Below are positions 25,802 through 36,774 of a DNA stretch of 64,000 nucleotides, one piece after another. The DNA is from an uncultured Rhodospirillales bacterium (lineage in GTDB: Bacteria; Pseudomonadota; Alphaproteobacteria; CAAGCB01; CAG-977), in the NCBI GenBank assembly GCA_902777205.1, contig CACYSU010000011.1:6910-70909 (forward strand), written 5' to 3'. Each line of letters opens with the position of its first letter. Positions within the stretch are counted from its first letter, which is position 1. The notes beneath the pieces were generated by a model. It ran no database searches. It had not been told where the DNA came from and worked only from the letters and a program-made list of their open reading frames with translations. The translations under genes and the position numbers were made by a program.

Positions 25802-27169
25802 TTAAAAACCGGCCGCGGCGAACATCAGCGACGACACCGCCGCCGACAAAACAATGACGGCTTTCATCGGCGCGGGCGCGGGCGACAGTTCGTCCTTCGC
25901 CGCCGCGGCGTACATCTGCCGGATCAGCCTTAAATACACATACATCAACGGCATCGCGCCGAAAACCAGCAGCAGGCAAAACGGCGTCGAACCGGCCGCC
26001 GCCGCCGCGCGGTACACATCGAAACGCGCCAAAAAACCGGCGAAAGGCGGCGCGCCCGCCGCCCCCAGAAAAATCAGGGAAAACAACGCGCCGCGAACGG
26101 GCTTCGCGCGTCCCTGCCCCGCCAGAATCCGCGTTTCCTCGATCAATTCGTCCCCGACGCGCAGGGACAGCATCACCGCGCACAATCCTGCCAGCAGCAC
26201 CGTGTCAACCGCCGCCGAAAACAGGAAAGTCCCCGCCGCGGAAACGGACAGTGCGGCCAAGGCCGTTCCGTTCATCGCGACCGCCGTGCACGCGATCAGC
26301 CGTTTGACGTTCGTCTGCACGACCGCCCCCGCGCCGCCGGCGAAAACGGACAGAACGGCGGCCGTTTCCAACACGGGACGCGCGTACCCCGCCAGATCCG
26401 CGAACGGACCCGACAGCAGGACGGCCAAAGCCCCCAGAACGGACAGCCGCGCGGTCAGGGCGAACATCGCCGTCACGGGCGACGGCGCCCCCTCGAACAC
26501 GTCGGACAGCCACAAATGGAACGGGGCGACGCCCGCTTTGGTAAACAGCCCCGCCGCGACGAACGCGCCGCCCCACAGCAAAACGGGCAGGACGCGGCTT
26601 TTGTCCATGGCGGCGAGGGCGGCGAAATCCACCGTTCCCGAACACGCGTAAACAACGGACACGCCGAACAGGTACACCCCCGACCCCAGCAGCGTCACGA
26701 TCGCCAGCTTGGCGCCGGCGGCGGTGGAACGTTCCCCCTGACGTTTATAGGCGGTCAGGAACAGCAACGGGAAAAAGGCCAGTTCCAGTCCCAGAAACTG
26801 CATCAAAAAATTGTCCGCCCCGACCGCCAGCATCATGCCGGCCGTCGAAAACCCGACCAAGGGCGCGAACTCGAACCGTTCGTATTTCTTGTACTTCAGC
26901 CAATCGGCGCCGAACGCCAGAACGGCGACGGCCGATCCGGTCAAAATCCGTTTCAGCGTCACACCCGCCGCGGCGAACGGCGCGTCCGGCGTTTTAATCA
27001 AAAACAGCAGGCAGAACGCCGCCATCAATCCGGCGAACACCGCGCCGTCGGCCGTTTTCTTGGCCTTTGACGGGGCGGCGCACACCCCCGCCATAATCGA
27101 CAGGACGGTACAGCACAGCAAAACGGCTTCGGGCAAAACGGGCATGATTTGCGACAACGCCTGATTCAT
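25802..27169 (-). CDS. nuoN: NADH-quinone oxidoreductase subunit N.
   Basis: Polytopic antiporter-like membrane protein in the terminal position of the nuo operon. Confidence 0.75.
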   Translation of the reverse strand: MNQALSQIMPVLPEAVLLCCTVLSIMAGVCAAPSKAKKTADGAVFAGLMAAFCLLFLIKTPDAPFAAAGVTLKRILTGSAVAVLAFGADWLKYKKYERFEFAPLVGFSTAGMMLAVGADNFLMQFLGLELAFFPLLFLTAYKRQGERSTAAGAKLAIVTLLGSGVYLFGVSVVYACSGTVDFAALAAMDKSRVLPVLLWGGAFVAAGLFTKAGVAPFHLWLSDVFEGAPSPVTAMFALTARLSVLGALAVLLSGPFADLAGYARPVLETAAVLSVFAGGAGAVVQTNVKRLIACTAVAMNGTALAALSVSAAGTFLFSAAVDTVLLAGLCAVMLSLRVGDELIEETRILAGQGRAKPVRGALFSLIFLGAAGAPPFAGFLARFDVYRAAAAAGSTPFCLLLVFGAMPLMYVYLRLIRQMYAAAAKDELSPAPAPMKAVIVLSAAVSSLMFAAAGF

Positions 27170-27170
27170 T

Positions 27171-28583
27171 TCAATTCCCCTTTCCCACGGCCATGCCGGC
27201 CAGATCGAACATCCCCTGCGGCATGACGGACAACGCCGCGAACACCGCGCCGCAAAACACCGTCGCCACCTTTTCGCGCCAGCTCATGTCCGGCAGGGGA
27301 AAGGGCGCGGCGGACGGTTCGCCGAACAGCAGGCGGGTAAACAGCCTGAAAAACGACGCGTACAGCAAAACGACGGAAAACAGCAGGAAAAACGCCGCCG
27401 CCGCGCTTTGGCGGAAAATGTCGATGAAAATCAGAAACTGCCCCGTGAACGGCATCAGCGGCGGCACGGCCAGAACCGCCAGACAGGACAGGAAAAACGC
27501 CGTCCCCAAATACGGCAGCGAAGTCATGATCCCCGTCGGATTGCGGATGCCCGCGTTTTTAAACCGGACGGTCAGCGCGCCCGCCGCCATCAGGTAGATC
27601 GACACGGCCAGCCCCTGCGCCGCGCACAAAAACAAAACGCCCCGCAGCGATTGCGGCGTCATGGCGAACACGCCGGCGGCCAGAAAACCGACCTGCGCCA
27701 AATGGGCGAAACCGGCCATTTTCTTGGCCTCCGTCTGTTTCAAAGTGATCAGCGCGCCGTAGAACGCCGAAAACACCGCCCACGCCGTCAAACACGGCGC
27801 CCATTGCGCCAGCACCGTTCCCGCCGCGGGCAAAGCCAGCCGGATGTACGCGTAAAACGCCAGCTTTGAAAAAACGCCGCACAGCAAAATCCCCGTCGGG
27901 ACGGGCGCTTCGGCCTGCGTGTCGCTGAGCCACGCGTGAAACGGAAACAGCGGCGCTTTGAACGCCAGCATCCCCAACATTCCGGCGGCCAGCCACGCCT
28001 GATTTTCCGGCCGGACGGCCGCCAAAGCCCCGAAATCCGCCGACCCCGCCCGTCCGGCCAGTTCCAGCAAAACGGGCAGCAGGCAAACCGCGCCCGCCAA
28101 ATCGGAAAAGCAGAACTTGTACGCCGTGTAAACGCGTTTTTCAACGCCCCAGACCGCCGTCATCAAAAACAGCGGAAAAGCCGCGGCTTCCCAAAAAAAG
28201 AAAAACCTGAACGCGTTTTGCGCGCAAACCGCCGTCAGCATAAAGCTTTCCGCGATCAACGCCAGACAGCAGAATTCGCGCACGCAAAACGGCACATGAC
28301 GGCGGACGACGGCGACCGACAAAACGGTCAGGAACGAAATCAGCAGCACGAAAATCATGCTCAGCGCGTCGATATCAACCTGCCATTCCGCATGGGAATC
28401 CGGCGTGATCCGGCGCGCGAACAGCGCCGCGAACGACAAACCGAACGTGCACAGCGCGATCAGCAAAGCCACATGGCGGCTGTTTTTCGACACGACCCGA
28501 TCGTCCCCGCGGACGAACAAAATGAACAGCGCGCCCAGCAAAGGCAATCCCAAAACGACGGCGGGCAAAGAAAAATCAGTCAC
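27171..28583 (-). CDS. nuoM: NADH-quinone oxidoreductase subunit M.
   Basis: Mrp-antiporter-like membrane subunit, 470 aa, operon position. Confidence 0.75.
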   Translation of the reverse strand: MTDFSLPAVVLGLPLLGALFILFVRGDDRVVSKNSRHVALLIALCTFGLSFAALFARRITPDSHAEWQVDIDALSMIFVLLISFLTVLSVAVVRRHVPFCVREFCCLALIAESFMLTAVCAQNAFRFFFFWEAAAFPLFLMTAVWGVEKRVYTAYKFCFSDLAGAVCLLPVLLELAGRAGSADFGALAAVRPENQAWLAAGMLGMLAFKAPLFPFHAWLSDTQAEAPVPTGILLCGVFSKLAFYAYIRLALPAAGTVLAQWAPCLTAWAVFSAFYGALITLKQTEAKKMAGFAHLAQVGFLAAGVFAMTPQSLRGVLFLCAAQGLAVSIYLMAAGALTVRFKNAGIRNPTGIMTSLPYLGTAFFLSCLAVLAVPPLMPFTGQFLIFIDIFRQSAAAAFFLLFSVVLLYASFFRLFTRLLFGEPSAAPFPLPDMSWREKVATVFCGAVFAALSVMPQGMFDLAGMAVGKGN

Positions 28584-28586
28584 GGC

Positions 28587-35346: not shown

Positions 35347-35921
35347 GCGTCCCTCCGGTTCAAATCGACGCCGAACAAAACGGCCTGCCGCCCGCTTTCG
35401 CGCTTTTGGCGGACGAATCGGCCTTTGGATTCGTCGTAAACCAGCCTGTCCGCCGGACGCGCGTCCTTGCGCAAAGGGCGGGCGGTCATATCGTCGGGCA
35501 GCAAAAGCCGGCGCATATCGGGGTGGTTTTCAAACGCGACGCCGAACATTTCCCACATTTCGCGCTCATACCACGCGGCGTTCGGGAAAACGGGACAGAC
35601 GGACGCGACGGCGACATCCTCCTGCGTCGCGCACACCAGCCGCAGCCGCCGTTTCATCAGCGGGCTGAGCAGAAAATAATTCAGTTCAAAACAATCCTGC
35701 CGGTCGGGATAATGCACGCAACAAGCGTCCGTCAGCTGCGTGAAACGACAGGCGGGATCGTCGCGTAAAAAACGCATCACGCGCAAAACGGCCGCCCGCA
35801 TCACGCGCAGCGCCGTCATGCCGGAAACGACGCCGACATCGGCGATGTCCTGACGCGCGAAATGCAAACGGACGTAACGGCCGAACTCCTCTTGCGATTT
35901 AAACAGCGCGTCCATGCTCAC
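35343..35921 (-). CDS. nuoC: NADH-quinone oxidoreductase subunit C (30-kDa subunit).
   Basis: Conserved NuoC core (ERE(M/V)WEMFG). Confidence 0.8.
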
Positions 35922-36379
35922 CCCTCTTTGATTTCACGGCGGATCAGGGCGCGCAGACGGTCGATCCCGTCGATCAAAGCGGCCGCGTCGGGCGGACATC
36001 CCGTCACGCAAACATCCACCGGCACAATGTCCGCCGCCCGCGTCACGGCATAGGAACCGCCGAACACCCCGCCGGTGATCGCGCAGTTGCCGAAAGCGAT
36101 CACATATTTCGGCGCGGGCATCTGGTCGTACAGGCGGCGCACGACCGGCGCGGCCTTTTCCGTCACCGCGCCCGCGACCAGCAGCACGTCGGCGTGGTGC
36201 GGGTTGAACACGGGCGTTTTGCCGGATCGCACCAGCGGCGCGAAACACGAACAGCACCCCGTCGCCGCGGCCAGAACGGCGTCGGGGTCGGAACACGCCG
36301 CCGCGGCCAAAGCTTTGAACGCGACGGCCGCAAACCCGTGTTCGCGCAGGCAATCTGTCCAGCCGCCGTTCATTCCCAT
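35918..36379 (-). CDS. nuoB: NADH-quinone oxidoreductase subunit B (20-kDa, N2 cluster).
   Basis: GCCSC...GNCA...GCPP cysteine motifs. Confidence 0.85.
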
Positions 36380-36774
36380 TCCAGCGCCCCTTTTTTATAT
36401 TCGTAGAAATAGCCGACGCCCCACAATCCGACCACGGCCAAAGCGGTGAAGACCTCCGTGCCGCCGGACAGGTTCAGCGACATCGCCCACGGCAGCAGCA
36501 GCAAAAATTCGGCGTTGAACAAAACGAACAGCAGGGCGATGAACGCGAACCGCGCGGGAAACCGTCCGGCGCCGTCCGACAAAATGTGAAAACCGCCCGC
36601 GTAGCCGTCGTTTTCAACCTTGGCCGCCGACCGTTTGCGAAACACGAAACCGGTCAGCCGCGCGGCAGTTTTCAACGCGGCCAGACCGACCAGCAAAGCG
36701 GCCGTGAAAAAAATCAGAAAATAGAAGTAAGCGTGCGTCATGTTTTCCATAAAAATACGGTTTACACCAAACAC
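36370..36774 (-). CDS. nuoA: NADH-quinone oxidoreductase subunit A.
   Basis: Small three-TM protein first in the operon. The true start may be the internal M ([10 protein letters not shown]). Confidence 0.7.

Follow-up and report, generated by a model that had tools for sequence, protein, structure and literature searches.

A complex I operon lacking the NADH-oxidising module, with a conserved iron-sulfur wire and a non-canonical quinone site, in gut Alphaproteobacteria

An uncultured Rhodospirillales bacterium carries, within the window studied here (the whole stretch of 64,000 nucleotides, or 64 kb, of contig CACYSU010000011.1 that was analysed), a complex I (nuo) operon of twelve genes from which nuoE and nuoF are missing and in which the NuoG-like protein has lost its N-terminal 2Fe-2S (N1b) domain. 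We consider it probable that this operon encodes a complex-I-derived membrane oxidoreductase that is under selection, works without the NADH module and stands at the end point of a stepwise reduction in gut and rumen Alphaproteobacteria. In canonical complex I electrons run in the order flavin mononucleotide (FMN)-N3-N1b-N4-N5-N6a-N6b-N2, and the N1b domain serves both as docking domain and as the sole electron path from NuoF. An initial annotation, made from the DNA sequence alone, had recognised the missing module; to judge from the residues at the quinone site and in much of the proton-transfer machinery, which are non-canonical as well, it understated how unusual the system is.

Results

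Pfam assigns the twelve consecutive minus-strand genes at 25802-36774 to nuo subunits in the order nuoA-B-C-D-G-H-I-J-K-L-M-N that had been proposed (Table 1), which leaves the 14-subunit set NuoA-NuoN incomplete at 12 genes, with nuoE and nuoF found neither in the operon nor elsewhere in the window. The nuoD stop and the nuoG start lie within GACCGGTGAGCGAA, a 4-nucleotide (nt) GTGA overlap that leaves no space between the two genes and agrees with the direct nuoD-nuoG overlap, and the missing nuoE and nuoF, described before. Queries for NuoE, NuoF and the N1b domain taken from close relatives gave no tblastn match in any of the six frames of the window, where the positive controls matched strongly, and Pfam scans of its 39 other open reading frames (ORFs) were negative for NuoE, NuoF, ferredoxin and flavodoxin; neither method revealed an N1b domain encoded separately within the 64 kb. 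With NuoF and NuoE absent and N1b deleted, the NADH/FMN site and the clusters N3, N1a and N1b are not encoded in the window. No conserved extra gene that could supply a docking module was seen next to nuoEF-less operons in the gene tables of relatives.

The ORF of the NuoG-like protein cannot be extended upstream, as 34189 is the first possible start after an in-frame stop, and the 569 amino acids (aa) originally given are its maximum length. Its first cysteine is C42, in keeping with the cysteine-free first 36 residues noted earlier, and the translation shows the ligands of N5 (H38-C42-C45-C51) and of N4 (C87-C90-C93 and C126). The N-terminal 2Fe-2S domain (Fer2_4/PF13510) gave no Pfam match in this protein, and its alignment with solved 75-kDa/NuoG chains from mitochondria and Paracoccus begins at their residues ~80-123, past N1b, so that both results confirm the loss of the domain that had been described. 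Truncated NuoGs still retain the first 7-8 residues of the full-length protein (MSELTIND versus MISLWIND), the deletions are in frame, and their downstream end-points differ from one truncated NuoG to another; together, retained N-termini and different end-points are the signature of independent in-frame internal deletions. NuoGs of nuoEF-less operons also lack a segment of ~12 aa between the CxxCxxC of N4 and its fourth cysteine, whereas those of nuoEF-bearing operons retain it.

The N-module seems to have ceased to be a canonical NADH dehydrogenase before it was deleted, since the NADH and FMN motifs of NuoF are degenerate in those members of the clade that still carry nuoEF. At the two loci concerned (L012 and L015), the glycine-rich NADH motif GRGGAGFPTG has become GRGIYGQKTA or GRGLFARKTA, and the FMN motif ICGEETAL has become VCRVDSAL or VCRSDTAM; the N3 cysteines are kept. 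Taken with the absence of NuoF and the deletion of N1b in the window, these motifs lend strong support to the earlier suggestion of a donor other than NADH: the enzyme would not oxidise NADH and would draw its electrons from another source.

The iron-sulfur wire N4-N5-N6a-N6b-N2 is present in the window with its full ligand set and is conserved across the clade. The N5 (HCCC) and N4 (CCCC) ligands are kept in 45/45 NuoGs examined, and the CCCC ligands of N1b in all 24 nuoEF-less NuoGs that retain the domain (24/24). NuoI, which at 105 aa is without the N- and C-terminal extensions of canonical NuoI (~160 aa), keeps both CxxCxxCxxxCP motifs (N6a and N6b, 8 cysteines), and NuoB keeps the four cysteine ligands of N2 (CC...C...C). 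The twelve window genes are intact and joined by translational-coupling overlaps, and more than 40 species-level clusters likewise have the 12 ORFs intact. The ratio of nonsynonymous to synonymous substitution rates (dN/dS) between the window and its relative L001 ranges from 0.05 to 0.26 over all nuo genes; the corresponding values are 0.17 (birA) and 0.10 (rnj). Far from being a cluster of pseudogenes, the operon is maintained by purifying selection, which, as the ligand conservation suggests, preserves the wire from the top of NuoG to N2.

The closest genome record by NuoG is Alphaproteobacteria bacterium UBA6324 (92% identity), followed by a metagenome-assembled genome (MAG) from water-buffalo rumen. 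A NuoD family search ties the clade to CCZ22587.1, the NuoD of Acetobacter sp. CAG:977, a basal clade member, and also reaches an 'Acetobacter sp.' MAG protein annotated as hypothetical by NCBI. The relatives share a common neighbourhood that runs from glgP (glycogen phosphorylase), in some cases through a RecD-like helicase gene and small ORFs, to nuoA-nuoN, birA and rnj; the birA-rnj order 3' of nuoN recurs in every relative examined, and its presence at the canonical locus L003 confirms that the window is arranged here as in canonical alphaproteobacteria.

Within this one synteny block the lineage-specific reduction that had been offered as a possibility can be followed directly, from 14-gene operons via operons that lack nuoEF but have a full NuoG to those in which nuoEF is missing and NuoG is truncated. 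Five states were distinguished. The first, L017, is a fully canonical 14-gene operon with canonical NuoD, NuoB, NuoA and NuoH motifs, and shares the upstream gene cluster. The second is the CAG:977 type (L012 and L015), with 14 genes including nuoE and nuoF and a NuoG of 670 aa; in L015 (9689-11701 and 8446-9696) NuoG keeps the 2Fe-2S domain and has lost 3/4 of the N1b cysteines (C-V-N-D). In the third (L013, L007-9 and L002) nuoEF is gone, nuoD overlaps nuoG, and the NuoG of 646-664 aa has its 2Fe-2S domain. The fourth, L018 (13414-15399), is a separate nuoEF-less lineage whose 661-aa NuoG has the ferredoxin-like N-terminal N1b domain without the cysteines that ligate the cluster. The fifth comprises the window, L001, L010/11, L014 and L016, in which nuoEF is absent, the N1b domain is deleted and NuoG measures 549-570 aa. 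Along the series NuoI shrinks from 162 aa through 148/136, 120 and 113 to 105-95 aa, and the NuoB of nuoEF-less operons has lost the eight residues directly after its CC motif.

Neighbour-joining on the part that the NuoGs have in common (200 bootstraps, numpy-based) united all nuoEF-less NuoGs in one group with 100% support and placed the window group together with the P0026 group as sister to the N1b-bearing 648-aa group (98.5%), while all truncated NuoGs formed one group in 0.5% of replicates. By this tree the nuoEF pair was lost once, and the N1b domain was deleted at least twice, because the truncated forms group together at 0.5% and their deletion end-points differ. Counting L015 and L018, where ligands alone were lost, the N1b cluster was given up at least four times. 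The sequences show an order of events in which the clade ancestor lost His38 of NuoD, and the NADH and FMN motifs of NuoF and the E-channel carboxylates degenerated first; Tyr87 of NuoD was lost after His38, as the basal CAG:977-type lineage keeps Tyr87; and nuoE and nuoF were deleted once, before N1b was deleted in frame at least twice.

The remodelling of NuoD concerns the two residues, His38 and Tyr87, that bind the quinone head group in Thermus thermophilus (PMC4758237). The best solved-structure match of the window NuoD is the Paracoccus denitrificans chain 8qby_D (E=9.6e-87), and aligned to this chain it has Ile20 opposite the T. thermophilus His38 position and Arg69 opposite Tyr87; Asp139 is kept. 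The beta1-beta2 loop has changed from NFGPQHPAAHGVLRL to NIAPEPSAGIGMCRL, and RLDYVS has changed to KLNRSA. His38 is absent in 44/44 clade NuoD clusters and Tyr87 in 42/44, whereas both are present in 18/18 canonical NuoD neighbours. At the Tyr87 position 39 of the 44 clade NuoDs have Arg, some lineages have Ala, Thr or Met (Met in L018), and Tyr occurs only in two CAG:977-type clusters. The loss of His38 spans the whole gut clade, nuoEF-bearing members included, and this change in NuoD thus predates the loss of nuoEF. The replacement loop, NIAPxPxxGxGxxRL, has an identity of 0.73 within the clade compared with 0.62 for the whole of NuoD; because the loop is more conserved than the protein around it, its sequence indicates a new constraint rather than drift.

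The membrane arm was compared by computed motif alignments, in which the residue names and numbers of the model enzymes are those we take to be in use for E. coli and Thermus. In NuoA the loop between transmembrane helices (TM) 1 and 2 reads YAGGF instead of YECGF, and FDLE has become FNAE with loss of the Asp. In NuoH SYE has become ACQ and ETNRxPFDLPEGE has become LTAQAPFGAPKSE, so that most charges are gone; the E-channel and quinone-tunnel carboxylates of this subunit are largely replaced, and its first loop carries a 6-aa deletion. NuoJ has Gly for the Glu of GAEF and Ser for the Tyr of VYVGA, and in an ungapped alignment both transmembrane Glu residues of NuoK are Gln. NuoL no longer has the TM7-8 signature, nor the His of TM8 and the Lys of TM10/11 (its TM12 alignment is uncertain); NuoM keeps the TM5 Glu, TM7 Lys and TM8 Lys and has Gln for the TM12 Glu; NuoN keeps the TM5 Glu and TM7 Lys and has Arg for the Lys of TM8 and TM12. 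The TM5 Glu and TM7 Lys are thus kept in NuoL, NuoM and NuoN alike. These E-channel and membrane-arm changes affect the gut clade including its nuoEF-bearing members, and they too predate the loss of nuoEF.

The divergence is reflected in how the proteins score. Pfam gathering scores are reached by 12/12 subunits, whereas 9/10 window subunits tested fall below the NCBIfam equivalog/subfamily cut-offs (score/cut-off: NuoD 355/360, NuoG 220/470, NuoH 173/450, NuoI 44/113, NuoK 42/89, NuoL 133/556, NuoM 257/264, NuoN 241/519), and only NuoB passes, with 120.7 against a cut-off of 116 for the NuoB subfamily model. NCBI labels clade proteins 'hypothetical protein' (NuoD, NuoG) or 'molybdopterin-dependent oxidoreductase' (NuoG). 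As subunits fall below curated cut-offs and some are named hypothetical, reconstructions of metabolism in gut Alphaproteobacteria that rely on such thresholds may overlook complex I and record it as absent. The genomes of the order Rs-D84 / Enterousia have been described as without respiratory chains (PMC12306168), a description that could itself reflect annotation thresholds; as it stands, it gives no support for placing the window organism in that order, and the link established is the one to CAG:977 by way of CCZ22587.1.

Table 1. Complex I genes and other features of the window, with positions counted from its first letter
Feature	Length (aa)	Position	Strand	Match or remark
nuoA	134	36370..36774	-	Pfam PF00507, E=7.6e-18
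nuoB	153	35918..36379	-	Pfam PF01058
nuoC	192	35343..35921	-	Pfam PF00329, E=8.4e-38
nuoD	386	34186..35346	-	Pfam PF00346
nuoG-like	569	32480..34189	-	PF10588 (His-ligated-cluster domain) and Molybdopterin; weak Fer4_Nqo3
nuoH	337	31470..32483	-	Pfam PF00146
nuoI	105	31156..31473	-	Pfam Fer4 families
nuoJ	163	30678..31169	-	Pfam PF00499
nuoK	97	30383..30676	-	Pfam PF00420
nuoL	597	28587..30380	-	Pfam PF00361
nuoM	470	27171..28583	-	Pfam PF00361
nuoN	455	25802..27169	-	Pfam PF00361
birA		25066-25794	-	Pfam; downstream neighbour, context only
rnj (RNase J gene)		23375-25141	-	Pfam; downstream neighbour, context only
orf113	113	36811-37152	-	36 nt 5' of nuoA
DUF6782 paralogue		8599-12423	-	Putative metallopeptidase
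DUF6782 paralogue		12564-14690	-	Putative metallopeptidase
DUF6782 paralogue		20019-20900	-	Putative metallopeptidase
DUF6782 paralogue		20903-21904	-	Putative metallopeptidase
DUF6782 paralogue		21906-22928	-	Putative metallopeptidase
YidD-family ORF	222	49132-49800	+	Between rnpA and yidC; two YidD matches
Low-GC island		56131-60887	+	Two genes

The ORF upstream of nuoA, orf113, is 86-100% identical across loci whose Nuo subunits share only 40-70% (dN=0 relative to L001). Its family comprises only 17 clusters, has no Pfam or NCBIfam match and travels with a RecD-like helicase cluster; an AlphaFold2 model had a mean confidence (pLDDT) of 51, too poor for use. As a replacement subunit or donor it was rejected, having no cysteine, standing also 5' of canonical or nuoEF-bearing operons (L017, L012 and L015) and being parted from nuoA by a helicase gene in L018. 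Since it also precedes canonical 14-gene operons, orf113 is probably not part of the Nuo system.

Three further observations concern the rest of the window. Five paralogues of a putative DUF6782 metallopeptidase are encoded on the minus strand, one of them 1274 aa long, and a DUF6782 gene also lies 3' of rnj in L007, L010 and L013. The two genes of the low-GC island (GC 0.42-0.47 compared with ~0.56 for the window) encode a protein of 816 aa with weak PifA/mad8 ATPase matches and one of 769 aa matching the RADAR deaminase RdrB (E=1.7e-30) and Pfam A_deaminase, and by these matches look like a horizontally acquired RADAR-like anti-phage pair. The YidD-family ORF is long for its family, whose Pfam model has 67 positions, and could represent a tandem duplication or a fusion, unless its start has been placed too far upstream. 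A scan of the window with Rfam returned one tRNA-Ser and nothing more.

Discussion

We propose that electrons enter this complex at the exposed N4 of the truncated NuoG, and at N1b in those relatives that keep N1b: given the canonical order of the clusters, removal of NuoEF would expose N1b and removal of N1b would expose N4. We infer NuoG to be the point of entry, because entry at NuoI would make NuoG dispensable, as it is in 11-subunit enzymes, yet all of its ligands are kept; in those nuoEF-less forms that have N1b, moreover, this cluster, which would be the outermost one, is strictly conserved. The donor would be a low-potential soluble carrier, most plausibly ferredoxin or flavodoxin reduced by pyruvate:ferredoxin oxidoreductase (PFO). 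This assignment is made by analogy with Campylobacter, whose nuoEF-less, NuoG-bearing complex I uses flavodoxin according to the account that PMC3144371 and PMC4453560 give, citing Weerakoon and Olson (2008), and because PFO, a short ferredoxin and [FeFe]-hydrogenases that have NuoE/F-like HymAB subunits have been reported from CAG:977 (PMC4967309). Electrons would then pass through N4-N5 in NuoG and N6a-N6b in NuoI to N2 in NuoB, above a complete 7-subunit membrane arm. Their exit, which is less certain, would be through a remodelled pocket without the canonical His/Tyr pair, where a quinone of the membrane or a different acceptor takes them up. A quinone is expected, as RquA, the rhodoquinone enzyme, has been reported from gut alphaproteobacterial genomes designated 'MAG Azo/Aceto' (PMC5953543), and as Asp139, N2 and the tunnel-forming subunits are retained. 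The acceptor is the weakest part of the mechanism, and since the canonical ligands are absent, binding and protonation of a quinone must differ from the canonical case. 'MAG Azo/Aceto' and CAG:977 are here assumed to be the same human-gut genome set. Ion translocation, and with it the coupling, is probably reduced or altered, and would rely on NuoM and NuoN.

Several points weigh against this proposal. Mutation of His38 or Tyr87 abolishes or cripples quinone reduction in model enzymes, and as both residues are absent from the acceptor site of the window enzyme, quinone reduction has to be treated as an assumption. Given the replacements in NuoK, NuoH, NuoA, NuoL and NuoN, energy coupling may be weak, absent or different. 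No candidate donor lies within the window, and PFO, ferredoxin and RquA are documented only in other members of the clade. The tree, finally, was built by neighbour-joining on a single protein.

The same changes raise the question of whether the complex has taken up new chemistry and is no longer a donor:quinone oxidoreductase, which we regard as rather unlikely. With both canonical substrate sites lost, N2 could reduce an acceptor other than quinone; the complex could run mainly in reverse, with the membrane potential driving the reduction of ferredoxin, for example for the [FeFe]-hydrogenases of the clade; or it could be a redox-regulated transporter, in which the wire only regulates an Mrp-like cation transporter. 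Such a change of function is in line with the almost complete loss of His38 and Tyr87 from the clade against their retention in every canonical neighbour, with the higher conservation of the replacement loop than of the whole of NuoD, with the neutralised E-channel carboxylates and with the scores below the NCBIfam cut-offs of all tested subunits but NuoB; Mbx, Ech and some archaeal forms, which are also without these residues, make no canonical use of quinone (PMC4758237). It fits less well with the retention of Asp139 and N2 and the intact architecture of NuoH, NuoB and NuoD, or with an Arg at the Tyr87 position that is not universal, since some lineages have Ala, Thr or Met there. The presence of RquA in 'MAG Azo/Aceto' moreover implies that a quinone pool is at work and requires a reductase (PMC5953543), and no candidate gene for an alternative acceptor adjoins the operon. 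Put more generally, that a mitochondrial-type complex I has been secondarily converted to a different reaction, with no NADH site, no canonical quinone site and a neutralised E-channel, is a view that we hold tentatively and at somewhat less than even confidence.

It is improbable that the complex still acts as an NADH dehydrogenase, with NuoE and NuoF or HymA/HymB-like homologues encoded elsewhere and docking on NuoG. There are bacteria in which nuoEFG lies outside the nuo operon (PMC3144371), CAG:977 and CAG:239 carry NuoE/F-like HymAB with an [FeFe]-hydrogenase (PMC4967309), and our search for nuoEF covered the 64-kb window. Such subunits would, however, meet a NuoG from which the N1b domain, with the cluster that relays electrons from N3 to N4, is deleted, and from which the ~12-aa segment present alongside nuoEF is missing; the NuoF encoded within operons of the clade already lacks the NADH and FMN motifs, and N1b ligands are lost even in the nuoEF-bearing L015.

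We give similarly little credence to the idea that the operon is a decaying, functionless relic of respiration in gut bacteria that live by fermentation. The enzyme has lost catalytic residues at either end and on the proton path, subunits shrink progressively (NuoI, and also NuoB and NuoC), and related gut lineages have reduced genomes (PMC12306168). Decay would not be expected, however, to leave the 12 ORFs intact over so many species-level clusters, with dN/dS values like those of the housekeeping neighbours, all ligands of N4, N5, N6a/b and N2 conserved, those of N1b also wherever the domain remains, the deletions in frame and the start-stop overlaps preserved.

That an assembly or binning artefact removed the nuoEF segment, a concern raised at the outset and a natural one for a metagenome-type source, is virtually excluded, as the same architecture with the same truncated NuoG recurs in assemblies made independently, by various pipelines and from many samples (clustering at 90% identity groups the window NuoG into a set of 32 different sequences, 569-571 aa long, which come from NCBI, JGI, ENA and Logan assemblies on contigs of up to 366 kb), the GTGA nuoD-nuoG junction is clean, and the deletion in NuoG is in frame with the N-terminal octapeptide retained.

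The complex-I-derived oxidoreductase that we favour descends from the canonical alphaproteobacterial/mitochondrial-type enzyme. Its best structure matches are the 14-subunit complexes of Paracoccus denitrificans (PDB 8QBY) and of mitochondria (NDUFS1/NDUFS2), with E=1e-77 for NuoG against the 75-78 kDa subunits, and it shares with them the common gene order, the birA-rnj pair downstream and the ligands of N4, N5, N6a/b and N2. It differs in being without NuoE, NuoF and N1b, in the replacement of NuoD His38 and Tyr87, of glutamates in NuoK, NuoH, NuoA and NuoJ and of Lys/His in NuoL and NuoN, and in its shortened NuoI and NuoB. In subunit complement, NADH site, ligands of the quinone and residues of the E-channel, then, the operon falls outside the canonical family.

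The closest functional analogue is the 12-subunit complex of Campylobacterota (Campylobacter jejuni, Helicobacter pylori, Sulfurovum and Nitratiruptor), which likewise has no NuoE or NuoF, keeps a NuoG-like subunit and uses a low-potential soluble carrier instead of NADH, as would the window enzyme with its predicted donor. The two do not owe this to common descent, as the nearest relatives of the window NuoG and NuoD are alphaproteobacterial/mitochondrial and the loss took place inside an alphaproteobacterial clade; the resemblance to the epsilonproteobacterial lineage, which is unrelated, is convergent. In Campylobacter, Weerakoon and Olson are said to have found nuoD separated from nuoG by two unrelated genes, Cj1575c and Cj1574c, whereas in the window nuoD and nuoG overlap by 4 nt with no replacement between them. 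The window enzyme is also without N1b and has non-canonical residues at the quinone site and along the proton path.

Enzymes without both the NADH module and NuoG, for which a ferredoxin-type donor has been proposed or shown, are considered functional (PMC3144371, PMC11238625, PMC4453560). These complex-I-like enzymes of 11 subunits resemble the window operon in having no NADH module, but they are without NuoG as well as NuoE and NuoF, and are taken to be of ancestral type or to form clades of their own, whereas the window operon keeps a NuoG with N4 and N5 and arose recently and secondarily from an alphaproteobacterial enzyme of 14 subunits. Homologues of NuoD that naturally have no His38 and/or Tyr87 are known only from deep-branching relatives, namely Mbx/MBS, Ech/Ehr, Fpo, Sulfolobus and Nautiliales NuoD (PMC4758237). 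In those lineages the state is interpreted as predating quinone reactivity; in the window it is secondary, because L017, the nearest syntenic outgroup, has both residues. Our literature search found no description of a complex I without nuoEF, or without His38 and Tyr87, in gut Alphaproteobacteria.

Complex I without nuoEF (Campylobacterota) or without nuoEFG (many phyla) is already known, but from old, separate lineages with no surviving intermediates. The loss described here is recent, it took place within the class of bacteria from which mitochondria arose, and its intermediates still exist. The clade amounts to a natural dissection of the enzyme: NuoE, NuoF, N1b, the NuoI tails and a NuoB loop are removable; residues thought essential, namely His38 and Tyr87, the glutamates of NuoK and the Lys/His in NuoL and NuoN, are replaceable in a complex that is still selected; and the wire from N4 to N2, together with TM5 Glu and TM7 Lys in the antiporter-like subunits, makes up its invariant parts. 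Models of quinone-site chemistry and of long-range coupling become directly testable in such a system. Should the tentative view of a conversion to a different reaction hold, this would be a naturally evolved complex I derivative in which the donor is new, the acceptor or the way it binds is new and the coupling is new or reduced, and of which L017, the CAG:977 type, L012, L013/L007 and the window record each step. The findings also bear on the remodelling of complex I in anaerobic mitochondria and hydrogenosomes.

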